From positions 2,622-66,621 of the forward strand of contig JACRKA010000351.1 of NCBI GenBank assembly GCA_016219905.1: DNA of 64,000 bases, written 5' to 3'. The notes beneath the pieces were generated by a model, which had not been told where the DNA came from, searched no databases, and saw only the letters and a list, made by a program, of their open reading frames with translations. The translations under genes and the position numbers were made by a program. The first letter of the stretch is position 1. Each line of letters starts with the position of its first letter. Positions 3,808 to 61,135 of the stretch are shown one piece after another. The DNA comes from Verrucomicrobiota bacterium. Its GTDB lineage: Bacteria; Verrucomicrobiota; Verrucomicrobiia; CAIQCK01.

Positions 3808-5205
3808 TCACAGGTCTTCGAGGTTGAATTCGTGGATCTTGCGGTGCAGCGTGCGCCGGCTCACGCCGAGCCGTTTGGCCGCCTCGGTGCGGTTGCCCTC
3901 GCAAGCCCTGAGCGCGTTGATGAACATCTGCCGCTCCACTTCGTGCAAGGGCAGCACGCCCTTTGCGATCTGCTCCGGCGACAGCATGCCTTGCTCGCGC
4001 GCCGCCTCCGTGCCGGCCCGCACCGCCGGCGGCAGGTCCTTCAGCGTGATCTTGTCGCCGCGCGCCAGCACCACCGCGCGCTCGATGGCCGTGCGCAACT
4101 CGCGCACGTTGCCGGGCCACTGGTAAAACAACAGCGCGTTCATCGCCTCCGGCGTGATCTCCGTGATCGGCTTGTTGTTCTCCCGCGCGAACTCCGTCAG
4201 GCACGCCTTCGCCAGCAGCACCACGTCGTCGCCCCGCTCGCGCAGCGGCGGCATCGTCACCGTCACCACCTGCAAACGGTAGAACAAATCGTCGCGGAAC
4301 TTCCCCGCCTTCACCAGCTCGTCGAGGTTCTTGTTCGTCGCGGCCACCAGCCGCACGTCCACGTCGAGGGTCTTGTTCCCGCCGACGCGCTCGAATTGCC
4401 GTTCGCCGAGCACCCGCAGGATCTTCACCTGCACCGACGGGTCAATCTCGCCGATCTCGTCCAAGAAGATCGTGCCGCCGTCGGCCTCCTCGAACCGCCC
4501 GATCCGCCGCTCCAGCGCGCCGGTGAACGCGCCCTTCTCGTGGCCGAACAGCTCGCTCTCCAGCAGGCTCAGCGACAGCGCCGCGCAGTGGACCGCGACG
4601 AAGCGGCTGGCGCGGCGCGGGCTGAGCTGGTGGACGGCGTGCGCCACCAGTTCCTTGCCGGTGCCGCTCTCGCCCTGGATCAACACCGTCGCCCGCGTCG
4701 GCGCCACCTGACGCACCGTGTCGAGCACCTCCACCATCGGCGCCGACTGGCCGATGATGTTCTCCAGGCCGAACCGTTTGTCGAGTTGCTGCCGCAGCGC
4801 GACGTTTTCACTTTCGAGCCGCCGGCTCTTCAGCGCGCGGGCCAGCACCAACTCCAGCCGTTCCAGGTCCACCGGCTTGGTCAGGTAATCGTAAGCGCCG
4901 CGACGCATCGCCTCCACCGCGTTCTCCACCGTGCCGTAGGCCGTCATCATGATGCACAACGGCGGGCGCGGCAGTGCCTGCGCGCGCTGGATCAACTGCA
5001 ACCCGTCCATGCCCGGCATCCGCAGGTCCGCCAGCACGACATCGAAGCTCTCCGTCTCCAGCAGCCGCATCGCCGTCGCGCCGTCCTCCGCCAGCGTCAC
5101 GGCGTAGTCGCCATCGAGCGCGCGGCTCAATCCCTCGCGCGTGTGGCGTTCGTCGTCCACGACCAGCACGGGCGGCAGCGGGGGTTTGGCAACGGGGGCG
5201 CTCAT
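3808..5205 (-). CDS. Sigma-54-dependent response regulator (NtrC family): receiver domain, AAA+ sigma54-interaction domain and Fis-type HTH.
   Basis: Receiver aspartate region (VLADLRMPGMDG). Walker A GESGTGKE. ESELFGHEKGAFTGA (GAFTGA motif). C-terminal HTH (AAKRLGVSRRTLHRK). Confidence 0.93.
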   Translation of the reverse strand: MSAPVAKPPLPPVLVVDDERHTREGLSRALDGDYAVTLAEDGATAMRLLETESFDVVLADLRMPGMDGLQLIQRAQALPRPPLCIMMTAYGTVENAVEAMRRGAYDYLTKPVDLERLELVLARALKSRRLESENVALRQQLDKRFGLENIIGQSAPMVEVLDTVRQVAPTRATVLIQGESGTGKELVAHAVHQLSPRRASRFVAVHCAALSLSLLESELFGHEKGAFTGALERRIGRFEEADGGTIFLDEIGEIDPSVQVKILRVLGERQFERVGGNKTLDVDVRLVAATNKNLDELVKAGKFRDDLFYRLQVVTVTMPPLRERGDDVVLLAKACLTEFARENNKPITEITPEAMNALLFYQWPGNVRELRTAIERAVVLARGDKITLKDLPPAVRAGTEAAREQGMLSPEQIAKGVLPLHEVERQMFINALRACEGNRTEAAKRLGVSRRTLHRKIHEFNLEDL

Positions 5206-21626: not shown

Positions 21627-21783
21627 AAAATCCGAAATCCGAAACTCGAAATTCGAAACAAATCCGAAACCCGAATTCACCAAAGACGGAAACCGCGCGT
21701 AGCGCCCTGGTCGGCCGTTTCCAAGATTTTCGTCTTTCCTCATTCGAGTTTGTTTCGGATTTCGAGTTTCGACATTCGGATTT
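21627..21783. repeat. Structured intercistronic palindromic repeat, copy 1 (nuoI-nuoJ gap).
   Basis: About 50-nt arms built from CCGAAAT/TCGAAAC heptads (aaatccgaaatccgaaactcgaaattcgaaac ... gtttcggatttcgagtttcgacattcggattt) around a roughly 60-nt loop. It fills the whole 163-bp gap. Confidence 0.85.
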
Positions 21784-23353: not shown

Positions 23354-23507
23354 GCCCGAAATCCGAAACTCGAAATCCGAAATAAATCCGAAATCCGAAG
23401 GCGGCAACGGCCAGACCGGCACCAACCGCTCTGGCGTGGACGTTTCGAGATTCGTTGTCTTCGTCATTCGAGTTTGTTTCGACTTTCGAGTTTCGACTTT
23501 CGGATTT
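23354..23507. repeat. Structured intercistronic palindromic repeat, copy 2 (nuoG-nuoH gap).
   Basis: Same architecture and heptad composition as copy 1 (cccgaaatccgaaactcgaaatccgaaataaatccgaaatccgaa ... cattcgagtttgtttcgactttcgagtttcgactttcggattt). It fills the 161-bp gap. Confidence 0.85.
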
Positions 23508-32160: not shown

Positions 32161-33066
32161 CTACTGTGACCCGAACAAACTTACGCCCGCCGGGCTGCGC
32201 CCGCCGCTGGTGTCCACGATCACCTTCCGCGCTTGTGCCAGGCATTGCTCCAGCGTCTCCAGATAAAGCCGGTGCCGCGTCGCCTCCGGCGCGTCCTTGT
32301 ATTTCGCGAACACCTCCCGCACCCGCTGCGCCGCGCCGCTGGCCAGCTCGACCTTCTCCTGCTTGTAGGCCTCCGCGAGCCGCTCCGCGCGATACGCCTC
32401 GCCCTGCGCCCTCGGGATCAAGTCGTTGGCATAACCCTGCGCCTCCTCCACCAGCCGGAAACGGTCGGCCTTCGCGCTGACCACATCGTTGAACGCAGCC
32501 GCCACCTCCGGCGGCGGATACACGCGCTGGATGTTTGCCGAGTTGATGCTGATGCCGCAGCGATACGCATCGGCCAGCTTCGCCAGCCGCTCCTGCACAC
32601 GCTGCTGGATCTCCACGCGCTTCTCGTAGAGCACCTCCTCCACCGGCATCCGCGCCACCACCTCCGTCAGCGCGTTCTTCGCCGCCGCCTTCAGCAAATC
32701 CTCCGGCGCGACGCTGCCGAACAGATAATCATGCGCCGAGGCGATGTTGTATTGCACCACCAGCTCGATGTTCACGATGTTCTTGTCGCCGCTGAGTAAT
32801 TCCACCTCTGCCGGCAACGGCGCCCAGCCCGTCACCTGCCCCGCCAATGCCACGCCCAGCCCCAGCCGTTTCGTCTCGCGCACCTTCAACGGCACCACCA
32901 CATCGCACGGCCACGGCAGCTTCACATGGATGCCGGGCGGCACGCGGTCATCCACGATCCGGCCGAACCGCCCCAGCACGCCCTGCTCGTCGGTCTTGAT
33001 CATATAGACCGACGTGGCCAGCCAGCCGATGACGGCCAGCGCGAATATCCAGCGAACTATTCTCAC
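32161..33066 (-). CDS. SPFH/band-7 domain protein (HflK/HflC family).
   Basis: N-terminal TM anchor followed by an SPFH domain and a coiled-coil tail. Overlaps the upstream SPFH gene by 4 nt. Confidence 0.8.
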   Translation of the reverse strand: MRIVRWIFALAVIGWLATSVYMIKTDEQGVLGRFGRIVDDRVPPGIHVKLPWPCDVVVPLKVRETKRLGLGVALAGQVTGWAPLPAEVELLSGDKNIVNIELVVQYNIASAHDYLFGSVAPEDLLKAAAKNALTEVVARMPVEEVLYEKRVEIQQRVQERLAKLADAYRCGISINSANIQRVYPPPEVAAAFNDVVSAKADRFRLVEEAQGYANDLIPRAQGEAYRAERLAEAYKQEKVELASGAAQRVREVFAKYKDAPEATRHRLYLETLEQCLAQARKVIVDTSGGRSPAGVSLFGSQ

Positions 33067-33953
33067 TTGTTTGCCTTCAACGCCTGCGATCCTTCCGTCA
33101 GCAGCTTCAGGAAATCACTGTCGCTGCCCAGCACCAGCGTCGTGTTCTCCTTCAGCGTCACCCGATACGCATCCAGCGTCCGCAGAAACTTGTAGAACGA
33201 CGGGTCCAGCGCGATGGCCGAGTTGTAAATCTCGATCGCCCTCGCGTCGCCCTCGCCCTTGAGCGTCTCGGCCTTGCGGTTCGCCTCGGCCAGGATCGTC
33301 GTCTTCTGCTTGTCCGCCTCGGCCCGGATCTTCATGCCCTCCTCCTGGCCCTCGGCGCGGAACTGCTTCGCCTCGCGCTGCCGTTCCGCCCGCATCCGCT
33401 CGAACACCGCGTCGCGGTTCTGCGTCGGGAAACCGAGCCGCTTGATCCGCACGTCCACCACCTCGATACCGTAGCGCCCCTTCGCCGTCTCGCTGCACTT
33501 CCCGCGGATCTCCTCCGAAAGCGGGTCGAGCTTCATCTCCTCCGGCTTTATCGAAAGCAACGCCGCCAGCGGCGTCACGCCCAGCTTTGAGCTAAGCTCG
33601 CTCCAGAGCACGTCCCGCAGCCGCATCTCCGCGCCGAGCGGGTCGCGCACCGCCAGCAGGAACTTCTGCGGCTCGGCGATCTTCCACGCCACGAAGCTCT
33701 GCACGACGATGTTCTTCTTGTCCTGCGTCAGGAACTCCGACGGTGTTGCGTCGTAAAGCCGCACGCGCCGGTCGAAGCGCAGCACGCCTTCCCACGGCCA
33801 CTTCAGCCCCAGTCCCGCCGCGTCGAGCGGGCGCACCGGCTTGCCAAACAGCGTCACGATCACGCTCTCGTTCTCGCGCACGGTGAAGAAGCACGTCCAG
33901 ACCGCGGCGACCGCCACGGCCAGCACAAGCAAGGTTTTCGATACAGGTTTCAT
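33063..33953 (-). CDS. SPFH/band-7 domain protein (HflC-like).
   Basis: N-terminal TM anchor, ESVIVTLFGKPV SPFH start, and a coiled-coil C-terminus (ERMRAERQREAKQFRAEGQEEG). Confidence 0.8.
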   Translation of the reverse strand: MKPVSKTLLVLAVAVAAVWTCFFTVRENESVIVTLFGKPVRPLDAAGLGLKWPWEGVLRFDRRVRLYDATPSEFLTQDKKNIVVQSFVAWKIAEPQKFLLAVRDPLGAEMRLRDVLWSELSSKLGVTPLAALLSIKPEEMKLDPLSEEIRGKCSETAKGRYGIEVVDVRIKRLGFPTQNRDAVFERMRAERQREAKQFRAEGQEEGMKIRAEADKQKTTILAEANRKAETLKGEGDARAIEIYNSAIALDPSFYKFLRTLDAYRVTLKENTTLVLGSDSDFLKLLTEGSQALKANK

Positions 33954-33954
33954 G

Positions 33955-36900
33955 TCACTCCTCGGAAATCGTCGGCCGCTGCGCCGTCTGCGCCGGCGCA
34001 GACGGTGCGCTTTGACTCAGCAGCGCCTTCAACCGCTCGTTCAGCAAATAAATCTGGTGCGGCGCCTTTGCGCGGTTGTCCACGACGTAAAGCTGCTGCC
34101 GCGGCAGCAACTCTTCCATCATCTCCAGGTAAAACCGTTCCGCCTGCGCCTCACGCTGTGGGCCGGCCGCCTTGGCCGTCGCTGCGAACCGCGCCGCGCG
34201 GCCATTGCTATCCGCGATTTTCGCGTCCCGTGCCGCCGTCGCCGCCGTCACCGTGTTCGTTGCCGCTCCGCGCGCCAGAGGCACCTGCTCATTGCGGTAG
34301 CCCTCCGCTTCGTTGATGACGCGGCTCTTTTCCTCAATGGCGCTCGCCACGTCGCGATACGCGTCCACCAGCTCGATCGGCGGATGCACGTCCTGCAACC
34401 GCACGGCCTGCACCTCGATCCCTGCCGCGCACGCATCGAGCCGCCGTTGGATGAACTCTCGCACATGCTGCTCGACGAAGGGCCGGCCCGTCGTGAGCAA
34501 TCGCTCCGCTGCCGCGCGTCCCGCCGCCTCGCGCAGCGCCGCCTCGGCCAGCGCCTTCACCAGCGCCGCCGGCTCCGTCGCCGCGAACAGGTAAGCCACC
34601 GGGTCCTTCACCACGAAATGCGTCGTCAGTGTCACCGCCACGAAGTTCTCGTCGCCCGCCACCACCATCGCCTCCTCCGGCACGAACTGGAACCCACCCT
34701 TGTGCTCATAGTTCCATTCGTAGGCCGTCGGTTCAATAAACACATTCGTCTGCGCGGCGGCCGGCTGCGTCCATCGTTTCCAGAACGGCTGCGCCGCGAC
34801 AGCGCGCTCCACCGCGCGCAACCCGACCTGCACACGCTGCACGCGCTCCGGCGTCACGCGGAGCACTTCGTCGCACGGCCACGGCCAGACGTAACTCAGC
34901 CCCGGTTCCAGCACGGCAACCTTTCGGCCAAAATGCAACCGCACGCCGACCTCGTCCGGCTGGATCGCCGTCAAGCCGGTCACAAACCAACTCGCCGTTG
35001 CCGCCACGAGCGCCACGCCCAGCGCTTTCGCCGGTTGGTTGCGACAGAACCCCGCCACCGCATTGCCCTGCCGCCGACATCCCGCCGTCTGCTGCTGCCA
35101 CCACGCCGCGCCGCGCCGCGCCGTCTCGCCGCTCGACAAGAGTCGCAGCGAGTTGCACACCACCAGCAGCGAGGAAATCTGGTGCGTGACCGCCGCGCCG
35201 ATCGGCCCGATCACGCCTTGCGACGCCGCGAACACCGCCGCGCCATTGAAGCCGACGGCGAACCACCAGATGTTGTGCCGGATCGTGCGGATGACCTGCC
35301 GGCAAAACTCGATCGCGAAAGGGATTCTCCTCAAGTCGTCCTGCATCAGCACGACATCAGCCGCCTCGATGGTGATGTCCGTGCCCAACCCGTGCATCGC
35401 CACGCCCGTGTCCGCCGCCGCGAGCGCCGGCGCGTCGTTGATCCCGTCGCCGCACATCAACGTCGCCAGCCCGCGCTGCTGGAGCGCGCGGATGCGCGCG
35501 ACCTTGTCCGCCGGCAGCAAGCCCGCGCCCACCTCGCCGATGCCCACGCGCTCGCCAATGGCGCGCCCGACGCGTTCGTTGTCACCCGTCAGCAGGACAA
35601 TCTGCTCGATGCCACACCCACGCAGCAACGCCACCGTCTCGCGCGCTTCCTCGCGTGGGGGGTCGCTAAGGGCGACCGCGCCGATGACGGTAGCCGCCGA
35701 CGTATGGAGGCGGTCCGCTTTCTTACCAACAGAACTGTTGTCCACCTCCTCACGTCGGTGGCTACCGCGCGCCACCAGCACCACCGTGTGGCCCGCTTCC
35801 TCCAGCCGCTGGATGCGCGCCTCGGCTTCCGCGGAAATCGCCGCGCCCCGCTGCTGCATCAGCTGGCGGTTGCCCACCGCAATGAATGTGGGAGGGGCCT
35901 TAGCGCCCCGACCCGGCGCGTCCCACGCCCCAGGAACGGACTTGGAAGTCCGTTCTACTTCGGAGGCTGTGCTCGAAGTCGTAGAACGGACTTCCAAGTC
36001 CGTTCCATCGTCACGACGAACCTCCGCCACCGTGCCCATGCCCGGCACGGCTTCGAACTTATCCGCCCGCTTCAGCGCAATGCCCCGCCGCTGCGCCTCC
36101 GCCACGATCACCTGCGCCAGCGGATGCTCCGAGTGCGACTCCGCCGTCGCCGCGAGCGCGAGCAACGCGCCCTCATCGCCGCCAAACGCGACCGTCTCGA
36201 CGACGCGCGGTTTGCCGACGGTCAGCGTGCCGGTCTTGTCGAACACAACCGCGCGCGTGTTCGCGAGCTTCTCCAGATAGATGCCGCCCTTGACCAACAC
36301 GCCGGCCCGCGCGAGCCGGCCGATGCCCGCCGCGATGCCCGTCGGCGTCGCCAACACCAGCGCGCACGGACACGCCACGATCAGCACGCTGACGGCCCGG
36401 ATGAGCCGCGCGCTGAAGTCCCCGCCGGAAAAGAAAAACGTCGCAAGGCCCAGCGCGATGACCGTCGGCACGAACCATACCGCCCACTTGTCGGCGCGCT
36501 GATGGACACCCGCCTTTTTCTCCTCCGCCTCCTCGACGAGGTGAATGATCTTGCCGAGCGTGGAATCCTCACCGACGCCAGTGACGCGCACGTCGAGCGA
36601 GCCGACCTGGTTGATGGTGCCTGCGAACACCTTGTCTCCGCCGGCCTTGTTCACCGGGATGCTCTCGCCAGTGATCGCGCTCTGGTCCACCGCCGATGCG
36701 CCCGCGACGACCTCGCCGTCCACCGCAATGCGCTCGCCCGGCCGAACCATAACCACGTCGCCAGCACGGATGTTGTCCAGCGCCACCTCGACGATGTCGC
36801 CGCCGCGCCGGACGCTGGCGGTGCGCGGCACCAGCTTGATGAGCTTCTCGATCGCGCCGCGCGTGCGGTCCACGGCGAGTTCTTCGAGATAGCCGCCGAC

Positions 36901-37176
36901 CAGCATGATAAAGATGACCTCGGCGGCGGCGAAATACTGGCCGATGTAGAGCGCGGCGCACGCGGCGATGGCGATGGCCAAGTCGCTGGAAATCTCGCGG
37001 TGGAGCAGCCCCCATGCGGCCTCGCCGAAGATCTTGTAGCCACCGATCAGCGTGATCAGCACCGCCACATCAAACGGCCCGACATCCTTGATCCAGCCAA
37101 ACCAGTAAAGCGCCAGCAGCCCGCCGACGGCGGCGATGAACAGTGGCTTGCACAGTTTCTTGAGCGACGCTGGCAT
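33955..37176 (-). CDS. Heavy-metal-translocating P1B-type ATPase (CPC type) fused at its C-terminus to an HflK-like SPFH domain. It carries in-frame palindromic insertions.
   Basis: P-type motifs: TGES, CPCAL (metal-binding TM6), DKTGTLT, GDGINDAPAL. The P-type portion ends at NSLRLL. After that the frame continues into a TM segment plus an HflK-like SPFH domain (VRLHFGRKVAVLEPGLSYVWPWP...) of about 370 aa. Total 1073 aa. Confidence 0.8.
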   Translation of the reverse strand: MPASLKKLCKPLFIAAVGGLLALYWFGWIKDVGPFDVAVLITLIGGYKIFGEAAWGLLHREISSDLAIAIAACAALYIGQYFAAAEVIFIMLVGGYLEELAVDRTRGAIEKLIKLVPRTASVRRGGDIVEVALDNIRAGDVVMVRPGERIAVDGEVVAGASAVDQSAITGESIPVNKAGGDKVFAGTINQVGSLDVRVTGVGEDSTLGKIIHLVEEAEEKKAGVHQRADKWAVWFVPTVIALGLATFFFSGGDFSARLIRAVSVLIVACPCALVLATPTGIAAGIGRLARAGVLVKGGIYLEKLANTRAVVFDKTGTLTVGKPRVVETVAFGGDEGALLALAATAESHSEHPLAQVIVAEAQRRGIALKRADKFEAVPGMGTVAEVRRDDGTDLEVRSTTSSTASEVERTSKSVPGAWDAPGRGAKAPPTFIAVGNRQLMQQRGAAISAEAEARIQRLEEAGHTVVLVARGSHRREEVDNSSVGKKADRLHTSAATVIGAVALSDPPREEARETVALLRGCGIEQIVLLTGDNERVGRAIGERVGIGEVGAGLLPADKVARIRALQQRGLATLMCGDGINDAPALAAADTGVAMHGLGTDITIEAADVVLMQDDLRRIPFAIEFCRQVIRTIRHNIWWFAVGFNGAAVFAASQGVIGPIGAAVTHQISSLLVVCNSLRLLSSGETARRGAAWWQQQTAGCRRQGNAVAGFCRNQPAKALGVALVAATASWFVTGLTAIQPDEVGVRLHFGRKVAVLEPGLSYVWPWPCDEVLRVTPERVQRVQVGLRAVERAVAAQPFWKRWTQPAAAQTNVFIEPTAYEWNYEHKGGFQFVPEEAMVVAGDENFVAVTLTTHFVVKDPVAYLFAATEPAALVKALAEAALREAAGRAAAERLLTTGRPFVEQHVREFIQRRLDACAAGIEVQAVRLQDVHPPIELVDAYRDVASAIEEKSRVINEAEGYRNEQVPLARGAATNTVTAATAARDAKIADSNGRAARFAATAKAAGPQREAQAERFYLEMMEELLPRQQLYVVDNRAKAPHQIYLLNERLKALLSQSAPSAPAQTAQRPTISEE
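35689..35766. repeat. In-frame palindromic element (family A) inside the P-type ATPase gene.
   Basis: 78 nt (26 codons). Arms ggtagccgccgacgtatggaggcgg / ccacctcctcacgtcggtggctacc. Encodes SHRREEVDNSSVGKKADRLHTSAATV, placed by eye into the HTVVLVARG...IGAVAL loop of the ATPase; P1B-ATPases are not expected to carry such a segment there. Confidence 0.75.
35893..36007. repeat. In-frame palindromic element (family B) inside the P-type ATPase gene.
   Basis: About 115 nt. It contains two mutually reverse-complementary 22-nt near-palindromes (gaacggacttggaagtccgttc / gaacggacttccaagtccgttc) flanking tacttcgg..cgaagtcgta. Encodes TDLEVRSTTSSTASEVERTSKSVPGAWDAPGRGAKAPP, sitting between VRRDDG and TFIAVGN, which I equate from memory with the VDGRTVLVGN region of other CopA-type pumps. 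Confidence 0.7.
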
Positions 37177-38265: not shown

Positions 38266-38364
38266 GTTGGAGTGATGGAGTATGGGAGTGTTGGGGGGAT
38301 GGGGAGATAGAACTTTCCGCTTCAACAATCCACTACTCCACAACTCCAATACCCCATCACTCCA
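38266..38364. repeat. GGAGT-rich palindromic intergenic element (family E), copy 1, between the convergent galE and exported-protein genes.
   Basis: ttggagtgatggagtatgggagtgttgggg ... ccacaactccaataccccatcactccatc forms a long imperfect hairpin that abuts both stop codons. Confidence 0.75.
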
Positions 38365-40800
38365 TCATTCGAGCTTCGGCCCCTCGATCCGCTCGCCGCG
38401 CTGCTGGCGGGCCTGGTCGGCGACATCGAACGTGCCGTAGAACAGCGCGTTCGCATCCATCCACGTCACCAGCCGCTCCATATCCTCCGCGGTGAGCGCC
38501 ACGTCGTGGTGACCTTTCATCAGCATCTTCATCAACGGGCTGCCGCGCGCGCCGAAAAAGTCCGGCTGCGACATCGGCTCGCTGTTCACGACGCGGAAGT
38601 CGCCCGGCTTGCCACCCCACGCCGAGAACGACACGCGTCCGGCCAGCGCGTTGTAGGAGGCGCTGTAGCGGCCTTGCGGTTCGCCCGTCAGCGCAAGCTT
38701 GCCCTCCGGCTGCGGCCCGCTGTGGCAGGAGACGCAATGTTTGTTGAGCACGGGCTGGACGAGGATGGGATAACTCAACGGCTTCGAGCCGTCGGGGCCG
38801 GGCGCAATCGTCGAAGGCGGCCGTGACATGGCGATGGCGACGCGGCGTGAAGATGGAGTGTTGGCACGGTGCTCGTGGCAGCCGACACAAGAAACGCGCT
38901 CGCCCGGCTGGAGATAGGTGACGCTGCGCATCGTTTGCACCGCCTGGCCGCGCTCGTCGAGCGCCTGGAACGCGAGCGCGATATTGGCCGGCGCGCGGAA
39001 ATACGCCGAGCCATCCGCCTCGACAGGCACCGTGCCGAGCACTTGCTTGCCGGGCGAGGCATTCGCAACACCAACCGTCGGCGCGTTGATGTGCGGTGTC
39101 GTCTTGGGCAGCACCTGGATGACGCGCAGACGCGTGATGCGAGCATCCGGCAGCCGCGGCCATGAATCGTGAACATTTTCAACAAAGAAGGTGCCGTCGC
39201 GCGATGCGGCATCCTTGATGCGCGATTCGGATTCTTGTGCAAGCAACGGCAACGCCGGCGGCGTCGGACGCGCCCGCAGCGGCATCGGCCAGAGGCTGCA
39301 GATTTCCGAGTCGCGATAAAGCAGTTCCTTGTTGCCGAACGCATCCACGAGGTAGAGGCCGAACATGTTCGCCGGATTGGCGCTCGGCTCGCCGATCAGC
39401 GGGTCGAAACTGTAGGCGGCCAGAAAATACTTCTCCGACAACGGCCACGGCGTGCGATAGCAGTGGCCCGGCCACCGCGCCGCCTCCGGCGGAACAACTG
39501 GCGGGTTCTTCGGGCTGCCCGGCGCGCGCCAGAACGCCGGTTTCGCCGTGCCGTGCGACACGGGCTCCTCGCTCTCGGGAAACAGCGCGTCCGGCGTCAG
39601 CCGCGTGATTGGTTCCAGACCGTCCACCCCGCGCGTCACATCAAGCAGAATGATCGAGCCGGCGGTCATCGCATGGTGCGCCGCAGCGGTGGCCATCACG
39701 CGGCTCGACGCCGGCACGGCGCGGGCTTCCCACACGCCGACCGGGTTCAACGTGTTGTTGCCGTAGAACGCACGCACATCCGTGCCGTCCGGCCGCACCG
39801 TCCAGAGTTGCTGGTAATGCACTGCGTTGCGGTCCACGTAATCCCAACGCGTGTAGATGACACGGCCATCGTTGAGGACCGACGGGTCCCATTCGTGCGT
39901 CTCGTGAAACGAGACCGGATGCGGGTCGGAGCCGTCGCCGTTCGCGACAGCCAGCGTGTAGGTCGCGCACGGCCCGCGCCCGCAGCGATGGAACCCGCCG
40001 CGCCGCGTCGAGATGAAAACAATGCGGCCATCGGGCAAACAGCGTGACGCAAAATCGTCGAACGGCCCGTCTGTGAGCTGGCGCAGCCGCGAACCGTCTG
40101 CCGCCATCTCGTAGAGATGGTAATACCGGTCCAGACACGCCTCGCGATCCTTCGGCGCGGTCGGGGCGTTACAGTAGGCGAACAGGATGCGTTTGCCGTC
40201 GTAGGACACCTCCGGGAACTGGAAACTGCCGGGCGGCAGCGCATCCGGCGCAAGCTGGCGGCACCGCATCGTCCTGCCCGGCTCGTCGAGCGCGAACACC
40301 CCGCCGCCCGGCCGCGCGCAACTGCCGTAGTATTGCGTGAGCTGGTGGCTGAACATGCTCGGCACCTGCTTCACGAAAACCAGCGGCCCCGTTTTCGCGA
40401 GCGGATTGGCAAACACGATCTCGCGCCGCAACTCATGCGCCCGCCGCCAGAGGCTTTCCAAAGCAGGAGAATCCGCCATCGTAGGCGCCGACGTAAGGAG
40501 GCGAACGTCATGTGTTGAGCCGGAACGTTTCGCCTCCTCACGTCGGCGCCTACCGAACTCCCCGCGCAGCTTCTCCCATTGCCGCTGCAAATCTCCCAAC
40601 TCCACGCCCGCCGCCCCCAGATCGCTAATCAGCGCATCACCACGCTTGAAGAGCTTGGCGACCGCGTCCACGTAGGTGCCGGGATTACGCGCCGTGCCGA
40701 TGCCATCCTGTTTGCGCCAGTCGGCTTCAATCATCGCGCGCTCGTCCGCCCCAAGCACGCTCGTGACTGCCATGAAGAATGACAATGCAAATCGCCGCAT
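38365..40800 (-). CDS. Exported protein with a TolB-like beta-propeller region and two C-terminal CxxCH (putative c-type haem) motifs. It carries an in-frame palindromic insertion.
   Basis: Signal peptide MRRFALSFFMAVTSVLGA. Repeated DG.(R/I).F.S propeller-like units. CVGCHEH and CVSCHSG motifs near the C-terminus. Confidence 0.65.
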   Translation of the reverse strand: MRRFALSFFMAVTSVLGADERAMIEADWRKQDGIGTARNPGTYVDAVAKLFKRGDALISDLGAAGVELGDLQRQWEKLRGEFGRRRREEAKRSGSTHDVRLLTSAPTMADSPALESLWRRAHELRREIVFANPLAKTGPLVFVKQVPSMFSHQLTQYYGSCARPGGGVFALDEPGRTMRCRQLAPDALPPGSFQFPEVSYDGKRILFAYCNAPTAPKDREACLDRYYHLYEMAADGSRLRQLTDGPFDDFASRCLPDGRIVFISTRRGGFHRCGRGPCATYTLAVANGDGSDPHPVSFHETHEWDPSVLNDGRVIYTRWDYVDRNAVHYQQLWTVRPDGTDVRAFYGNNTLNPVGVWEARAVPASSRVMATAAAHHAMTAGSIILLDVTRGVDGLEPITRLTPDALFPESEEPVSHGTAKPAFWRAPGSPKNPPVVPPEAARWPGHCYRTPWPLSEKYFLAAYSFDPLIGEPSANPANMFGLYLVDAFGNKELLYRDSEICSLWPMPLRARPTPPALPLLAQESESRIKDAASRDGTFFVENVHDSWPRLPDARITRLRVIQVLPKTTPHINAPTVGVANASPGKQVLGTVPVEADGSAYFRAPANIALAFQALDERGQAVQTMRSVTYLQPGERVSCVGCHEHRANTPSSRRVAIAMSRPPSTIAPGPDGSKPLSYPILVQPVLNKHCVSCHSGPQPEGKLALTGEPQGRYSASYNALAGRVSFSAWGGKPGDFRVVNSEPMSQPDFFGARGSPLMKMLMKGHHDVALTAEDMERLVTWMDANALFYGTFDVADQARQQRGERIEGPKLE
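40481..40553. repeat. In-frame palindromic element (family A), copy 2, inside the exported-protein gene.
   Basis: Arms gtaggcgccgacgtaaggaggcgaacg / cgtttcgcctcctcacgtcggcgcctac share the core CCGACGT..GGAGGCG / CGCCTCCTCACGTCGG with the copy in the ATPase. Encodes about RRRREEAKRSGSTHDVRLLTSAPT. Confidence 0.75.
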
Positions 40801-40848: not shown

Positions 40849-42966
40849 TCATTCCTCCCACAGTCCGCGGATTTTGCCGCGGGCGTCCGTTTCCTGAGCA
40901 ACCGATTCCGCGCCGCCGGCATCCACTTTTGGCAACTTCAACGTCACTTGCTCGAACTTCGCCCGCACGTCGGTTGGGATGAAGCGGGTCAGTTGCGCGA
41001 ATGTGTGGCGGTCGCCCATCTCGTGCTTCGTGGCGTAGTAGCGCAGCGGGAAACAGACGTAGAGCCAGTTGCGCGCGCGGGTCAACGCAACGTAAAGCAG
41101 CCGCCGCTCCTCTTCGATCTCGTCCGCGTCGCCGGTGCTCAGGTCGCTGGGGATGATGCCGTCGGTGGCGTGGATGAGGAAGACCACGTCCCACTCGCAA
41201 CCTTTCGCCGAGTGGATCGTGCTCAGCGTCATCCAGTCGTCGTCCTTGCGCGGCGGGCCAGCCCAATCGCCGGTCGCGCCCGGCGGGTCGAGCGTCAGCT
41301 CGGAGAGGAACTGCTCGCGGGACTCGAAGCCCGCCGCGATGACGCCCAACTGCTCCAAGTCGCGCACGCGGACCTCGGCGTGGTCATAGACCTCGTGGAA
41401 GATCGGGTCGTAGAATTGTCGGATGCGCTCAATCTGCGTGCCCAAACTGATGATGGTGGGGCGAGGCTCTGCCGAGCCTTCGCCACTGTCTTCATGGGCA
41501 TGGCTCGGCGGAGCCTCGCCCCACCCCTTTGGCGACAGCTTAATCTCACCCAAATCGCGCAGCAGGCCGCACAATGCGATGAACCGCTCCCGCGCCGCAG
41601 GCGGCACGGGACAGTGCGACAGCGCGCGCAGGTCATGGCCGTTGGCGGCAAGGAAGCGCCAGATGCGCTTCGCGCCAGCCGGGCCGACACCCTCCAGCAG
41701 GTGGAGGACGCGGAACCAGCTCATCTCGTCGCGCGGGTTCTCCAGGATGCGCAGCAGGGCGAGCAAGTCCTTCACGTGGGCGGCTTCGAGGAACTTCAGG
41801 CCGCCGAATTTCACGAACGGGATGTTGCGCCGCGTCAACTCCACCTCCAACGCGTCGCTCCAGTGGGCGGTGCGCACGAGCACAGCCATCCGGCGCAACG
41901 GCACGCCGGCCTCGTAGTGCTCGAGGATTTTCTTGCAGACGAACCGCGACTGCTGCGCCTCGTCGAGGCAGTTGACCAGCATCGGCCGCTGTTCGCTGCG
42001 GCGGTCGCTCCAGAGGTCCTTGGTGAACCGCTCCGGCGCGCGGGCGATGACGGCGTTGGTGGCGGCGAGGATCGGCTGCACGCTGCGGTAGTTCTGCTCG
42101 AGCGTGATGATGGCCGCGCCGGGGAACTGTTTCGGGAAATCGAGGATGTTGCGGACCGTCGCGGCGCGGAAGCTGTAGATGCTCTGCGCGTCGTCGCCGA
42201 CGACGCTGAGGTTGCGGTGCGGCCCAGCCATCTTCAGCAAGATGTCAGCTTGCAGCCTGTTCGTGTCTTGGTATTCGTCCACGAGGATGTGGCTAAAGCG
42301 GGCGGCGACGCGCGGACCGGCCTCGGCCGTGTCCATCAGGTGCCGCCAGACCAGCAGCAGGTCGTCGTAGTCGAGCACGTGCCGGTCGTGCTTGCGGTCG
42401 GTGTAGGCCGCGAACAGTTGCTTCAATTCCGCCTCATGCTCCGCGCACCACGGGAAATGGCGCTTGAGCACACGACCGAGCGGCTGCCGGGCGTTGGCGC
42501 AGCGTGAGTAGATGTCGAGCAGCGTGCCTTTCTTCGGGAACCGCTTCTCCTTCGAGTGCAAGCCGAGGTCATGACGGACGAGGTTGAGCAGGTCCTCGGC
42601 GTCGGATTGGTCGAGCACGGTGAAATCGGGCGCGAGGCCGACGGCGCGGCCGTGGATGCGGAGGAGACGGTTGGCGATGGCGTGGAAGGTGCCGCCCCAG
42701 ACGCGTGAAACGTGAAACGTGAAACGTGAAACGTGACAGGAATGTTCGGCGCGGCGGATCATCTCGTGGGCCGCGCGGCGGGTGAAGGTGAGCAGGAGGA
42801 TGCGCCCGGCTGGCACGCCGCGCTGGAGCAGGCAGGCGACACGGGCGGCGAGGGTCTTGGTCTTGCCGGTGCCCGCGCCGGCGATGATCAGGAGCGGGCC
42901 GTCGCCATGCGTGGCCGCGGCGCGCTGCTGCGGGTTGAGTTCATCCAGCCAGGCAGAGTCGGGCAT
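40849..42966 (-). CDS. UvrD/PcrA/Rep family ATP-dependent DNA helicase.
   Basis: Motif I GAGTGKT, Ia LLLTFTRRAA, II VDEYQDTN, GTFH, and downstream motifs. 705 aa. Confidence 0.9.
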   Translation of the reverse strand: MPDSAWLDELNPQQRAAATHGDGPLLIIAGAGTGKTKTLAARVACLLQRGVPAGRILLLTFTRRAAHEMIRRAEHSCHVSRFTFHVSRVWGGTFHAIANRLLRIHGRAVGLAPDFTVLDQSDAEDLLNLVRHDLGLHSKEKRFPKKGTLLDIYSRCANARQPLGRVLKRHFPWCAEHEAELKQLFAAYTDRKHDRHVLDYDDLLLVWRHLMDTAEAGPRVAARFSHILVDEYQDTNRLQADILLKMAGPHRNLSVVGDDAQSIYSFRAATVRNILDFPKQFPGAAIITLEQNYRSVQPILAATNAVIARAPERFTKDLWSDRRSEQRPMLVNCLDEAQQSRFVCKKILEHYEAGVPLRRMAVLVRTAHWSDALEVELTRRNIPFVKFGGLKFLEAAHVKDLLALLRILENPRDEMSWFRVLHLLEGVGPAGAKRIWRFLAANGHDLRALSHCPVPPAARERFIALCGLLRDLGEIKLSPKGWGEAPPSHAHEDSGEGSAEPRPTIISLGTQIERIRQFYDPIFHEVYDHAEVRVRDLEQLGVIAAGFESREQFLSELTLDPPGATGDWAGPPRKDDDWMTLSTIHSAKGCEWDVVFLIHATDGIIPSDLSTGDADEIEEERRLLYVALTRARNWLYVCFPLRYYATKHEMGDRHTFAQLTRFIPTDVRAKFEQVTLKLPKVDAGGAESVAQETDARGKIRGLWEE
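42703..42735. repeat. Tandem GTGAAAC heptad repeat (4.5 units) embedded in-frame in the helicase gene.
   Basis: cgtgaaacgtgaaacgtgaaacgtgaaacgtga. Translated on the minus strand as HVSRFTFHVSRV between helicase motifs Ia and GTFH. Confidence 0.8.
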
Positions 42967-54849: not shown

Positions 54850-54851
54850 GA

Positions 54852-54907
54852 GGCGTGAAACGTGAAACGTGAACGTGAAACTCTTACGTTTTACGTTTTA
54901 CGTTTCA
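54852..54907. repeat. GTGAAAC heptad-repeat hairpin (family C) exactly filling the gap between plsY and the upstream gene.
   Basis: gcgtgaaacgtgaaacgtgaacgtgaaac tcttac gttttacgttttacgtttcac: about 25-bp inverted arms of GTGAAAC/GTTTTAC units. Confidence 0.8.
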
Positions 54908-56383
54908 CTACTTGAACGTCGGCAGGAAGCGGTAATAAACCTCCAGCATCATGCACAGCAGCGTGGTGTGATACACCGGCTGGTCTTTCGGATCGGTGAC
55001 CTGCCTCCAGCCCGTCGCGGGCGGGCCGCCAGCAGGGCCAGGCACCGGCCATGAACCGTCCGCCTTTTGGTAGCGGATGATCTCCTCGCGGAACATGCGG
55101 TTCCATGCCGTCCAGTAGCTGCCGCCTGCCTGGAAAAGCGCCTGCGTCATGTAATACCATCCGTAGCTGCTCCCCTCGCCGCCTTTTTCCCACTCGCACT
55201 TGTAGGTGCTCAAGGTCCGCTGTCCACCCTTGGCCTCCTTCGAGTCACCCGCATTGATGAATTGCATGCAAAGCACACCCACACCGACCAGCGCGGGAGA
55301 GCCGCCGCCCCTGACCGCGTAACCGAACTGGTGCTTCTTGTCATCATAGACGCCCCGCAGGAACTCCAGCGCCTTCTGCAAGCATGCATCAATGCCCGCC
55401 ACCTTCACGCCCGCCATCTTCGCCGCCTTGAGCGCCTGCACGTTCCAACCGACGATGGACGTGTCGCCGCCGGGCCGCTTCGGATCCTCGCGCCCCACCT
55501 TGTTGTAACCGTAATCCCACGATCCATTTGGCGCCTGGTTGCTCACGATGAGTTGAACCGCGCCCTCCAGCACCGTCAACAGGTCGCTGATCTGCGTCAG
55601 CGCATAATCCTCCGCCAGCGCATACGTCGCGATCGCGTGCTGATACTCCACGTGCTCGGTGGCCAGTTTGTTCCTGTTCTTCTTGCCGACCTCCATCAAC
55701 CACTGCACGCCCTTCTGCACCGTCTCGCCATAATGCTGGCTGTCCTGCCGTTCGCCGTGCGCCAGGAACGTCAGCAGCGCCAGGCCCGTCATGGAGGATC
55801 GGTAGTGCCCGCCCCACGAACCGTCCGGGTTCTGGTTCGCCTTCAGCCAGTCCAGCGCCCGCAACACCGCGCCCTCCCCCTGCCGCGTGCCGCCAAACTT
55901 CCCCATCGCATTACCCCTCTCGGAGCCGAACCGGTTCTGGTAAAGGCTGGACACCTTCACGTTCGCGAGATTCTTGATGAGGCTCTTTGACAAATCCCCC
56001 GACGTCACCGGCGCAGCCACCGTCGGCGTCACAATGCTCACCGCCGTCGGCGATGGCAACGGCGTCGCCACCGTGATCGGCCGGGCCGCAGTCGCTGAGG
56101 TCGTCGGTTGCTTGGTCGTCGCCAGATTCTGCTCCTTCCGCTGCTCTGGCGGGGGCGGGGGCGGCACACTGTCATTCGCCTTCTGGGCCGAGGGCGCTAC
56201 GAAGACGGATACCATCCCGCTCTGCGTGCGAGTCACTTCGTAGGTGCCGAACAGGAGGATGAACAGCAGGTGCAACAGCAACGCGACCAGATAGAACGGC
56301 ACGCTGCGGAAACGCGTCAGAATCAGGTCAGTCCACGCCTGCGGATTCAACCACGATGATACGGATCCAGTTGGCGCTTGCAC
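54908..56383 (-). CDS. Membrane-anchored protein with prenyltransferase / squalene-oxidase-like (terpenoid cyclase) repeats.
   Basis: N-terminal TM anchor, a Pro-rich linker (PPPPPPEQ) and repeated DGSWG / NGSWDYG / DGSWPVPG alpha-alpha toroid repeat signatures. Confidence 0.7.
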   Translation of the reverse strand: MQAPTGSVSSWLNPQAWTDLILTRFRSVPFYLVALLLHLLFILLFGTYEVTRTQSGMVSVFVAPSAQKANDSVPPPPPPEQRKEQNLATTKQPTTSATAARPITVATPLPSPTAVSIVTPTVAAPVTSGDLSKSLIKNLANVKVSSLYQNRFGSERGNAMGKFGGTRQGEGAVLRALDWLKANQNPDGSWGGHYRSSMTGLALLTFLAHGERQDSQHYGETVQKGVQWLMEVGKKNRNKLATEHVEYQHAIATYALAEDYALTQISDLLTVLEGAVQLIVSNQAPNGSWDYGYNKVGREDPKRPGGDTSIVGWNVQALKAAKMAGVKVAGIDACLQKALEFLRGVYDDKKHQFGYAVRGGGSPALVGVGVLCMQFINAGDSKEAKGGQRTLSTYKCEWEKGGEGSSYGWYYMTQALFQAGGSYWTAWNRMFREEIIRYQKADGSWPVPGPAGGPPATGWRQVTDPKDQPVYHTTLLCMMLEVYYRFLPTFK

Positions 56384-58494: not shown

Positions 58495-58498
58495 AAGA

Positions 58499-58580
58499 TT
58501 GGAGTGGTGGGGTGATGGAGTATTGGAGTGTTGGGTTGTCTGTGGAAGTTACCCATTACTCCAATACTCCAACACTCCAT
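58499..58580. repeat. GGAGT-rich palindromic intergenic element (family E), copy 2, between the glucan phosphorylase stop and the ADH start.
   Basis: ttggagtggtggggtgatggagtattggagtgttggg ... cccattactccaatactccaacactccat: the same GGAGT(A/G)TTGG-unit hairpin as at 38266-38364. Its right arm overlaps the TAA stop. Confidence 0.75.
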
Positions 58581-61135
58581 TACCCCCATAGGATCAGCCC
58601 CGTGTCGAGCGGGTCGCCGAGGTCGGGATGAGCGGGGACGACGCGGACGGCGAAGCCGTGGCGGCCGGTGGCCTGGCAGGGGATCGCTCCGATGAAGCGG
58701 TGCGTGCCGTCGGAATTGGACCGGACGAGTTTCATCGGGACCGATCTGGCACGCGCGAGGCGTCCGTCGGCTTCCAGCGGGCCGTAGAAAAGTTGAAGGG
58801 CGATGTTCTCCGGCTTCAGGTCGCCGACGTGGACGGTGGCGGCGACGGGCAGTTCGGCGCCGACGGCCTGCTCGCCTTCGGCGCACTGCTGGACGCTGGA
58901 AAGCCGGACTTTGCCCCAGTTCTGCGCGATGTAATGCTTCCAGCCGGTGAACTGGCGGCAGGCGCCCATGTTGTCGCTGGCCAGGCGCTGGTGGCGTTGC
59001 GCGCAGGGCACGTAGGATTGCTCGACGTATTCCTGCACCATGCGATGGCTGTTGAAGATCGGCCCGATGGTGCTCATGGAGTTCTTCATCATGGCGATCC
59101 ATCGCCGCGGCAACCCGTCGGCGCCGCGCTCGTAGAACAGCGGGACGATCTCCTTCTCCAGCAGGTCGTAGAGCGCGCGGCTCTCGACTTCGTCCTGATA
59201 GTTCGGGTCGGTGTAGTCCTCGCCGTGGCCGATGCTCCAGCCGTTGTCGGCCTGCTCGACTTCGCACCACCAGCCGTCGAGCGTGCTGACGTTGAGCGCG
59301 CCGTTGACGGTGGCCTTCATGCCGCTGGTGCCGCTGGCCTCCAGCGGCCGGCGCGGCGTGTTGAGCCACACGTCGCAACCCTGCACGAGGTAGTGGGCCG
59401 TGTTGACGTCGTAGTCTTCGAGGAAGACGACCCGGTTGCGGATGTCGGATTCGCGGGCAAACTGGACGATCTGGCGGATGAGTTCCTTGCCGGGGCCGTC
59501 ATTGGGATGCGCCTTGCCGGCAAAGATGATCTGGACGGGCAGGTCGCTGTTGGTCAGGAGCCGCTTGAACCGTTCCGCATCGCGCAGCAGCAGGTTGCCC
59601 CGCTTGTAGGTGGCGAACCGCCGCGCGAAGCCGATGGTCAGGACTTTCGGATCGAGCACCTCGTCGGCGTGGGCGGTCTCGCTGATCATCGCGCCCCGGC
59701 GGCGAAGCTGCTCGCGCAACCGGCGGCGGGCATAGGCCACGAGCCGTTCGCGCCGCCGCTCGTGGGTGCGCCAGAGTTCCGCGTCGGGGATTTCCTTGAT
59801 GCCCTGCCAGACGCTCTGGTCGGTCGGCTCCTCCTGCAGGCGCAGGCCGAGGTAGGTCTCAAACAAAGCGGCCATCTCGCGCGACAGCCACGAATGGGAG
59901 TGCACGCCATTGGTGATGGCCGTGATGGGCACCTCCTGCTCCGGCACCTCCGGCCACATCCGCTGCCACATGCGGCGGGAGACTTCGCCGTGGAGTTTGC
60001 TGACGCCGTTGCGCTTCGCGGAGAACCTCAGCGCCAGCACGGCCATGTTGAAGTTTTCGGTGTTGTCGGCGGGGTTCTGGCGCCCCAAGCCGAGGAAGTC
60101 GTTGCGATCCAGGCCGAGTTCCTGCCGGAAGCCGTGGAAGTAATGCTCCATCAGGTCCGCATGGAACACGTCAATGCCCGCCGGCACCGGCGTGTGCGTC
60201 GTGAACACACCGCCCGCCGACACGATCTCGCGCGCTTCCGCGAAACTCAGGTGGTTCTCCTTCATCTTGCGGCGCACGCGCTCCAGGCCGAGGAACGCGG
60301 CGTGGCCCTCGTTCATGTGGCAGACGTGCGAGTTCAACCCCAGCGCCTGCAGCGCGCGGCAACCGCCGATGCCGAGCATGATCTCCTGCCGGATGCGCAT
60401 GTCGCTGTCGCCGCCGTAGAGCGAGGCGGTGATGTCGCGGTCGGCGGGCGAGTTCGACTCGATGTTCGTGTCGAGCAGGTAAAGGGGGACGCGGCCGACC
60501 TGCGCCCGCCAGATCTGCGCCCGCACCGTGCGGCCCGGATAGTCGAGGCTGATGATCAGCGGCAGGCCCTCCGGGTTGCGGACCAGCGTGATCGGCATGT
60601 TGTAGAAATCGTTGTCGGGATACACCTCGAGCTGCCAGCCGTTGGCGTCGAGGCGCTGATGGAAATAGCCGCGCCGGTAGAGCAGGCCGACGCCCACCAA
60701 CGGCACGCCGAGGTCGCTCGCGCTCTTGAGATGGTCGCCCGCGAGCACGCCGAGGCCGCCCGAATAGATCGGCAGGCACTCGTGGATGCCGAACTCCAGC
60801 GAGAAGTAGGCGATCGCAGCCGGGTTGTTGCCGTCGTGGACCTTGTGATACCACGTCGTGTCGTTCATGTAGCGTTCGAGCCGGGCCATCACGCGCTTCA
60901 TGTGCGCCAGGAACCCGCCATCGTTCTTGAGCACGCCCAGCCGTTCCTGGCTGATCCGGCCCAGCATCAGGATCGGGCTGTGATACGTCTCCCGCCACAG
61001 GTCGCGATCCATGCGCAGAAACAGCTCGATCGCCTCGGCGTTCCACGACCACCACAAATTGTAGGCCAGCGTCCGGAGCGGACTCAGTTCCTCCGGCAGC
61101 GACGCAACCACTTCAAACGTGCGTATGTTCTTCAT
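58580..61135 (-). CDS. Alpha-glucan phosphorylase (GT35 family, maltodextrin/glycogen phosphorylase-like).
   Basis: 851 aa. PLP-Lys region (TSGMKATVNGALNVSTLDGWW) and conserved GT35 core (GFTTHTPVPAG, EASGTSGMK). Confidence 0.88.
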   Translation of the reverse strand: MKNIRTFEVVASLPEELSPLRTLAYNLWWSWNAEAIELFLRMDRDLWRETYHSPILMLGRISQERLGVLKNDGGFLAHMKRVMARLERYMNDTTWYHKVHDGNNPAAIAYFSLEFGIHECLPIYSGGLGVLAGDHLKSASDLGVPLVGVGLLYRRGYFHQRLDANGWQLEVYPDNDFYNMPITLVRNPEGLPLIISLDYPGRTVRAQIWRAQVGRVPLYLLDTNIESNSPADRDITASLYGGDSDMRIRQEIMLGIGGCRALQALGLNSHVCHMNEGHAAFLGLERVRRKMKENHLSFAEAREIVSAGGVFTTHTPVPAGIDVFHADLMEHYFHGFRQELGLDRNDFLGLGRQNPADNTENFNMAVLALRFSAKRNGVSKLHGEVSRRMWQRMWPEVPEQEVPITAITNGVHSHSWLSREMAALFETYLGLRLQEEPTDQSVWQGIKEIPDAELWRTHERRRERLVAYARRRLREQLRRRGAMISETAHADEVLDPKVLTIGFARRFATYKRGNLLLRDAERFKRLLTNSDLPVQIIFAGKAHPNDGPGKELIRQIVQFARESDIRNRVVFLEDYDVNTAHYLVQGCDVWLNTPRRPLEASGTSGMKATVNGALNVSTLDGWWCEVEQADNGWSIGHGEDYTDPNYQDEVESRALYDLLEKEIVPLFYERGADGLPRRWIAMMKNSMSTIGPIFNSHRMVQEYVEQSYVPCAQRHQRLASDNMGACRQFTGWKHYIAQNWGKVRLSSVQQCAEGEQAVGAELPVAATVHVGDLKPENIALQLFYGPLEADGRLARARSVPMKLVRSNSDGTHRFIGAIPCQATGRHGFAVRVVPAHPDLGDPLDTGLILWG

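Follow-up and report, generated by a model that had tools for sequence, protein, structure and literature searches.

Tagged palindromes carried in frame by a P1B-type ATPase gene and an exported beta-propeller gene of a Verrucomicrobiota bacterium

A 64,000-nt stretch of the Verrucomicrobiota genome assembly GCA_016219905.1 (contig JACRKA010000351.1, positions 2,622 to 66,621; referred to as the window, in whose numbering its coordinates are given) contains long palindromes inside the reading frame of a heavy-metal P1B-type ATPase. This raises the question of what such hairpin-forming DNA is and how it came to lie within a conserved enzyme. The inserts are best read, at a probability of roughly 85%, as copies of non-autonomous elements of the repetitive extragenic palindrome (REP) type, including REP doublets forming hairpins (REPINs), that is, as short GT[AG]G-tagged palindromes. 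Three families, termed A, B and G, each recur at many dispersed sites in genomes of this verrucomicrobial lineage, and in related genomes families A and B flank genes for Y1 (HUH) transposases of the REP-associated tyrosine transposase (RAYT) type.

Palindromes within two reading frames

The two host genes and the elements they carry are the following, with the basis of each assignment in brackets.

33955-37176, minus strand: P1B-type ATPase fused to a C-terminal SPFH/Band_7 domain, 1073 aa (open reading frame (ORF), translation, Pfam E1-E2_ATPase, Hydrolase and Band_7)
35690-35765 (76 nt, GTAG...CTAC), no strand: family A hairpin, GTAGCCGCCGACGT..GGAGGCGG ... CCACCTCCTCACGTCGGTGGCTAC, in-frame peptide GSHRREEVDNSSVGKKADRLHTSAAT (arms, fold, family census)
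35884-35913 (30 nt), plus strand: family G single unit, GAATGTGGGAGGGGCCTTAGCGCCCCGACC, GTGG tag, GGGGC/GCCCC stem, peptide GRGAKAPPTF (blastn and pattern hits)
35914-35932 (19 nt), no strand: linker between the G unit and the B doublet, within a block absent from orthologues (codon comparison with loci L240-L242)
35933-36006 (74 nt), no strand: family B REP doublet (REPIN), peptide GTDLEVRSTTSSTASEVERTSKSVP (arms, family census)
38365-40800, minus strand: exported HZS-alpha/PD40 beta-propeller protein, 811 aa (translation, Pfam)
40481-40553, no strand: second family A hairpin, GTAGGCGCCGACGTAAGGAGGCGAA ... TTCGCCTCCTCACGTCGGCGCCTAC, in-frame peptide GRRRREEAKRSGSTHDVRLLTSAPT (arms, fold, orthologues)

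The initial annotation had proposed that hairpin elements of two families sit in the ATPase frame without breaking it. Positions, complementarity, open frames and intact motifs all agree with this, except that three families were found. Each of the three insert blocks can be read through in the frame of its long minus-strand ORF, and the translated ATPase retains intact CPC, DKTGT, TGD and GDGxND motifs. The arms of its family A copy (35688-35713 and 35742-35767) are 85% complementary and the hairpin folds at -49.4 kcal/mol (z -8.9), compared with 96% complementarity (40481-40505 and 40529-40553) and -56.5 kcal/mol (z -10.5) for the copy in the exported gene. The former had been placed at 35689-35766 with a length of 78 nt; its location stands, while the element proper is 76 nt long and the peptide originally quoted is shifted by one codon against the coordinates given for it.

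The family B doublet consists of two identical GTAG-tagged REP units, GTAGAACGGACTTCCAAGTCCGTTC, arranged head to head around a 22-nt spacer (minus-strand unit 35934-35958, plus-strand unit 35981-36005). Both match the family consensus identically, and the 26-nt arms (35933-35958 and 35981-36006) are 100% complementary. Family B had been assigned about 115 nt and about 38 residues at 35893-36007; the hairpin was recovered but not these boundaries, as the block at this site is a composite of G unit (30 nt), linker (19 nt) and B doublet (74 nt) that spans 123 nt or 41 codons (35884-36006). The first two residues of TFIAVGN, formerly taken as an ATPase flank, are consequently encoded by the G unit. 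The linker gave no match in the repeat search.

The folding suggested at the outset gave energies of -47 to -78 kcal/mol for the window hairpins, with z-scores of -8.4 to -10.5 versus shuffled sequence. The family A core pattern was matched four times in the window versus 0.41 expected, a number that none of 100 shuffles reached, and the paired family A pattern and the family B core were each matched twice versus 0 expected. Searching Rfam returned sub-threshold chance matches to miRNA hairpins only (24.8-29.2 bits versus gathering scores of 64-105) and no known RNA family.

Comparison with homologues was utilized in order to evaluate whether these positions are normally occupied. The closest homologues of the ATPase are proteins of Verrucomicrobia metagenome-assembled genomes (MAGs) that share 70-77% identity, measure 1002-1016 aa and carry the same ATPase-Band_7 fusion. 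In an alignment of 72 sequences, 70 of the 71 homologues have no residue at either insert site, as had been expected of these loop positions. For site A, the sequence is CGC GAC GGC ACC GTG in the closest orthologue and CGC G[76 nt]C GTC in the window, a change of +76/-7 nt relative to locus L242. At site B, codon comparison with loci L240, L241 and L242 placed 41 additional window codons after a native turn of five residues and before the conserved xAVGN. Clean indels of 78 and about 115 nt had been predicted; the absence from orthologues was thus confirmed, the exact lengths were not. Independent extra residues are present at site B in homologues P0010 and P0056.

Both ATPase inserts lie between DKTGT (residues 313-317) and TGD (530-532), in what we take, from established P-type ATPase architecture, to be the cytoplasmic nucleotide-binding domain. 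An AlphaFold2 model was built on the 72-sequence alignment (mean predicted local distance difference test score, pLDDT, 81). Residues 392-424 were modelled as coil with pLDDT <50 between strands 381-386 and 430-435, and residues 473-494 as coil between strands 464-472 and 495-504, where the mean pLDDT of 10-residue blocks was 66 for 471-480 and 49 for 481-490. The flanking strands and the remaining ATPase core were modelled confidently. As the inserts appear as low-confidence coil between retained strands, they are placed at beta-hairpin turns, a predicted placement that is consistent with tolerated surface loops and agrees with the location proposed originally.

The exported protein is identical to a protein of an NCBI MAG (P0121), its other orthologues being 70-79% identical. 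The claim that it holds a second family A copy is upheld: the 25-residue segment at 40481-40553 is found in 0 of 18 aligned orthologues and sits in an N-terminal linker of variable length (2 to about 50 residues in these orthologues). The same linker (window residues ~80-110) has other, unrelated extra segments in P0122, P0123, P0125, P0129 and P0131; examples from other lineages, seen in proteins alone, include AVAAVSDRRNSPQEGRPAVGDRRYS and SGRD..VVSQQ..SRSENAIH, and some are internally repetitive. Judging from these protein sequences, the linker appears to have accepted insertions repeatedly. The exported gene was not present in the ATPase orthologue loci examined.

The ATPase itself lacks an N-terminal metal-binding domain, and the domain fused to it is an HflK-like SPFH/Band_7 domain. 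Two separate Band_7 genes follow it in the window (32161-37176 in all, minus strand) and in loci L240, L241 and L242. A Band_7 Pfam match is present in all 120 hits listed for the fusion, which recurs in MAGs labelled Verrucomicrobia, Planctomycetota, Blastocatellia and Sumerlaeota; we know of no characterised example. The window ATPase is missing from the protein collection, where its best match is 72% identical, although the exported protein of the same contig is included at 100%. The source record may carry no annotation for it or may list it as a pseudogene, perhaps owing to the inserts.

Repeat families and transposases in other genomes

The search for further copies of the two cores, proposed with the initial annotation, showed both to be abundant. 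Family A was observed in at least 119 genome stretches upon a genome scan, with several copies per MAG, and 68 of the 80 records among the matches listed are labelled Verrucomicrobiota (Limisphaerales, Pedosphaera, subdivision 3 and others). Its copies form hairpins of 65-87 nt, 103 out of 127 being bounded by GTAG and CTAC, with the consensus GTAG-C[A/C]G-CCGACGTGAGGAGGC...loop...GCCTCCTCACGTCGG-C[T/G]G-CTAC. The outer stem triplets covary (CAG/CTG 45, CCG/CGG 38, GCG/CGC 16, GAG/CTC 8). Many Verrucomicrobiota share the conserved arms of about 24 nt, while the loops are alike within a genome and different between genomes. The two halves are not self-complementary and pair only with each other across the loop. 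No target-site duplication was detected in the flanks of 103 copies: direct repeats of k=2 numbered 7 versus 2.8 expected (shuffle maximum 9), and those of k=3 to 5 numbered 1, 0 and 0 versus 1.05, 0.43 and 0.13. This lack is as expected for Y1 transposition.

An inner family A core, CCGACGTnAGGAGG...CCTCCTnACGTCGG, was also seen with other outer arms (TGTCAT[C/T]...[G/A]ATGACA) and no GTAG tag in loci L001, L058 and L086, two of which are Bacteroidota records (L001, a Cytophagaceae MAG; L058, Flavobacterium cauense). These copies lie outside open frames or have almost no open flank, and they may represent either a distant relative of family A or convergence.

Family B was found in at least 120 metagenome contigs. 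The scan used the stem alone, with the tag left out of the pattern; GTAG precedes 206 of 214 units. Each unit has a 10-bp stem, GAACGGACTT/AAGTCCGTTC, and a 2-nt loop; 79 head-to-head doublets (commonest length 68 nt, spacers ~16-24 nt) and 56 singles were counted. Family B is accordingly a textbook GTAG-tagged REP with REPIN doublet anatomy. Blastn and pattern searches of the same contigs gave 42 copies of family G, mostly inverted pairs, with the consensus GAATGTGGGAGGGGCCTCAGCGCCCCGAC, a GGGGC/GCCCC stem and the GTGG tag variant in all copies listed. The family B contigs also contain 7 family A copies, which indicates that A and B co-reside in relatives of the window organism; the family B pattern was absent from the fetched family A loci. 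None of the fetched loci comes from the window organism itself; the closest relative among them shares ~80-82% DNA identity with the window.

All fetched loci were then scanned for HUH motifs and by phmmer, which yielded three Y1 proteins. The one in locus L036 (3256-3824) matches Escherichia coli TnpA-REP (PDB 4ER8) at E = 7e-9 in a PDB sequence search, with no Pfam hit at E <=0.01, and complete family A hairpins lie on both sides of its gene (3093-3186 and 4027-4135). The protein in locus L216 matches Pfam Y1_Tnp at E = 8e-9, and four family B units surround its gene (90-114, 256-280, 996-1020 and 1065-1089). Such repeat-flanked RAYT arrangements have been named REPtrons (PMC3733652).

A conservative genic test served to evaluate the extent of in-frame insertion: a copy counted only if its frame stayed open through the element and for 60 or more codons to either side, and if the GC content at third codon positions of that frame was of the coding type in both flanks. 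The test was passed by 28 of 121 family A copies (23%), by 13 of 102 evaluable family B copies (13%) and by 51% of random 70-nt windows of the same loci, meaning that the elements are depleted from genes just ~2-4-fold. Pfam domains were found on either side of the insert in UvrB (L002), NuoL (L110) and a NuoF-like protein (L026). Recurrent peptides are xS[S/R]RREEA...SLLTSAAT, ...EPPHVGxY and VAADVRR... for family A, and VERTSKSVP, NGLGSPFY and TDLEVRS for family B.

Where a family A insert is present, the host gene often has further odd segments of other families as well. In UvrB (L002), LTPSLSPSGGERVVPQSEGLGSG directly follows the insert, the NuoF-like protein (L026) contains RPHPGPLPQERENYS...SPLPGGEGQGEGE, and L019 has two related segments, GARAVPARSA...GTGRGPS and GARAVPARSA...GTVRAPS.

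Origin of the inserts

Under the preferred reading, a RAYT would recognise the hairpin on single-stranded DNA and copy or move the element without target-site duplication. Insertions would land anywhere, and those that break the frame, carry stops or disturb the fold would be purged, while stop-free additions whose length is divisible by three could persist, at solvent-exposed turns or linkers, as nearly neutral peptide loops. The ATPase would in this way have gained three units, lodged at two beta-hairpin turns within its cytoplasmic nucleotide-binding domain, and the exported protein one unit in a hypervariable N-terminal linker, with both host genes probably still functional. The earlier proposal of selfish palindromes tolerated as loop peptides is supported and sharpened to REP/REPIN-RAYT elements.

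Several points weigh against this reading. Family A is not a canonical REP doublet, since each half is no stem-loop itself. Its in-frame copies have GTAG...CTAC lengths that are mostly not multiples of three (remainder 0, 4 copies; 1, 12; 2, 12), so that the inserted unit must carry extra nucleotides or come with small target changes. No RAYT gene was found within the 64-kb window, and the link to a transposase consequently rests on related genomes. We know of no direct demonstration of RAYT-mediated REP mobilisation, and the neutrality of the inserts and the activity of the ATPase are likewise matters that we infer.

Of the other explanations, the one that survives best, although it is unlikely, holds that intragenic copies are kept because they are useful, for example because their mRNA hairpins adjust translation or decay or because the peptides have been exapted as flexible linkers. 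The high intragenic share of both families (23% and 13%, against 51% of random windows) would fit this, as would the compensatory changes that preserve the stems, but transposase recognition would equally yield such covariation. A frame bias in family A points the same way: the xS[S/R]RREEA frame is used by 22 of the 28 in-frame copies and one open exit frame is never used. Part of this bias, though only part, is accounted for by TAG/TGA codons in the arms, which close another frame. The hosts are moreover unrelated, and the sites are variable loops with different elements in different orthologues.

Less probable still is descent from classical miniature inverted-repeat transposable elements (MITEs) of DDE-type insertion sequences (for example IS630/Tc1-like), which would insert at TA and duplicate it. 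The two window copies of family A are indeed bounded by TA (GG-TA-GCC...GGC-TA-CC and G-TA-GGC...GCC-TA-C). Across the family, however, GTAG/CTAC is conserved as a whole tetranucleotide (103 of 127 copies), which assigns the TA to the element. Outside the tag there is no direct repeat of note (the slight excess is confined to k=2, with nothing at k>=3), and the transposase genes found beside the elements are Y1/HUH rather than DDE. A TA target-site duplication, suggested by the two window copies, was accordingly ruled out by the 127 copies with their conserved GTAG/CTAC and lack of flanking direct repeats.

That the segments are ancestral, lineage-specific loop sequence rather than insertions is hardly credible. 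The loops are variable, as the extra residues of P0010 and P0056 at ATPase site B and the exported linker of 2 to ~50 residues illustrate, but the same DNA recurs in hundreds of unrelated loci, both intergenic and genic, and this multi-copy census refutes an ancestral origin; the segments are also missing from 70/71 ATPase and 18/18 exported-protein homologues, and the family B units are identical to their family consensus. Assembly artefacts, which repeats in a MAG contig such as this can cause through false joins, have a negligible probability, since coding frame and homology run seamlessly on both sides and the same phenomenon is present in dozens of independent assemblies as well as in published isolate genomes (PMC3733652).

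Relation to known elements and further repeats in the window

A 2013 study in BMC Genomics by Di Nocera, De Gregorio and Rocco distinguished a GTAG-tagged and a CGTC-tagged superfamily among prokaryotic REPs, linked the GTAG REPs to RAYTs and described REPs inside genes in several species (PMC3733652). GTAG REPs and REPINs had been associated with RAYT (TnpA-REP, Y1/HUH) transposases by Bertels & Rainey 2011 as well (PMC3116915; PMC3733652). Opitutus terrae, a verrucomicrobium, had the largest number of intragenic GTAG REPs (families GTAG-17 to GTAG-20). Doublets or groups that encode 20-30 residues made up over half of the inserts in genes, some genes had received two, the DNA-repair genes uvrA, uvrB and uvrD were frequent hosts, and the parallel with Rickettsia palindromic elements (RPEs) was drawn explicitly (PMC3733652). 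The suggestion of novelty is therefore not supported for the phenomenon; what is seen here repeats it in a different verrucomicrobial lineage and with other repeat sequences. Families A, B and G are new sequence families of a known kind, and novelty is confined to the particular sequences.

Family B is like GTAG REPs and REPINs in its 5' GTAG, 10-bp stem, head-to-head doublets with 16-24-nt spacers, singles and high copy number. Family G resembles the GT[AG]G REPs in its GTGG tag variant, and family A does so in its GTAG at both ends and its lack of target duplication. The Y1 gene flanked by family B and the TnpA-REP homologue flanked by family A correspond to the REP/REPIN-RAYT arrangement. 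Unlike canonical REPs, family A has halves that are not stem-loops, and ~24-nt arms are kept across much of the phylum around genome-specific loops. As far as a check was possible, the present sequences are distinct from those of the 24 published GTAG families. The table of REP-encoded peptides (PMC3733652, Additional file 3) contains no TSAAT, RREEA, ADVRR or HVGGY, and a full-text literature search for the exact repeat and peptide strings gave just an unrelated primer match.

The setting in Opitutus terrae is similar in phylum, in co-resident GT[AG]G families and in many copies within real genes, sometimes two per gene. Its hosts (UvrA, UvrB, UvrD and helicases) are paralleled here by UvrB in L002 and by a UvrD-like gene in the window. 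The lineage (Limisphaerales/Pedosphaera-type relatives), repeats and host genes differ, and here three units of three families occupy one ATPase.

The resemblance to RPEs noted at the outset holds for behaviour only, as palindromic repeats lie in frame in functional genes and are carried as extra surface peptides. It fails for tag and host: the elements here are GTAG/GTGG-tagged rather than CGTC-tagged, RAYT-associated and found in free-living high-GC Verrucomicrobiota, whereas RPEs belong to an obligate intracellular alphaproteobacterium. RPE-4 and RPE-6 of R. conorii are short, REP-like and CGTC-tagged, no dedicated transposase being known for CGTC repeats, while RPE-1 is a longer palindromic insertion (PMC3733652). 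In Coxiella burnetii, MITEs are reported to lie in coding regions and have been linked to protein evolution, and they resemble the present elements as small non-autonomous palindromic repeats (PMC5896051). The elements described here nevertheless show neither terminal repeats of a DDE insertion sequence nor target-site duplications. Both of these features characterise MITEs.

A broader proposition, which we regard as rather doubtful, is that family A is an unusually ancient, phylum-wide RAYT-associated hairpin whose GTAG-ended arms have been retained in most Verrucomicrobiota as the loops turned over, that this lineage tolerates or exploits coding REP insertion well above other free-living bacteria, and that certain protein loops are recurrent landing pads. 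Were this true, the intragenic share of family A could reach ~45% after correction for the 51% sensitivity of the genic test.

The results reveal no new mechanism, and their practical value lies chiefly in annotation and evolutionary studies. Verrucomicrobial proteins often carry REP-encoded segments of 8-45 residues that can lead alignment, the placing of domain boundaries, structure prediction and pseudogene calling astray, and recognition permits them to be masked. Three sequence-defined GT[AG]G families are added to the REP catalogue, with candidate RAYT partners for A and B, along with a sizeable natural set of loop insertions in conserved enzymes (P-type ATPase, UvrB, NuoL and NuoF).

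Several palindromic families are plentiful in the source genome, and further repeats were observed in the window. In-frame repeats occur likewise in the adjacent UvrD/PcrA-like helicase gene (40849-42966, minus strand; Pfam UvrD-helicase and UvrD_C), at 41455-41525 and 42700-42737. Its family E insert is a tail-to-tail doublet of a GTGG-tagged REP, GTGGGGCGAGGCTC..GAGCC, with the peptide GWGEAPPSHAHEDSGEGSAEPRPT. Its family F insert is a GTGAAAC tandem/hairpin repeat with the peptide HVSRFTFHVSRV, opposite a 5-residue gap in the PcrA alignment. Intergenic hairpin repeats lie at 21628-21783, 23356-23503, 38268-38364, 58498-58589 and 54850-54908; they comprise family C (AAATCCGAAATCCGAAAC..., two copies), family D (TGGAGTGATGGAGTAT..., two copies) and a second copy of F. 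One of the family D copies directly follows the stop codon of the exported gene.

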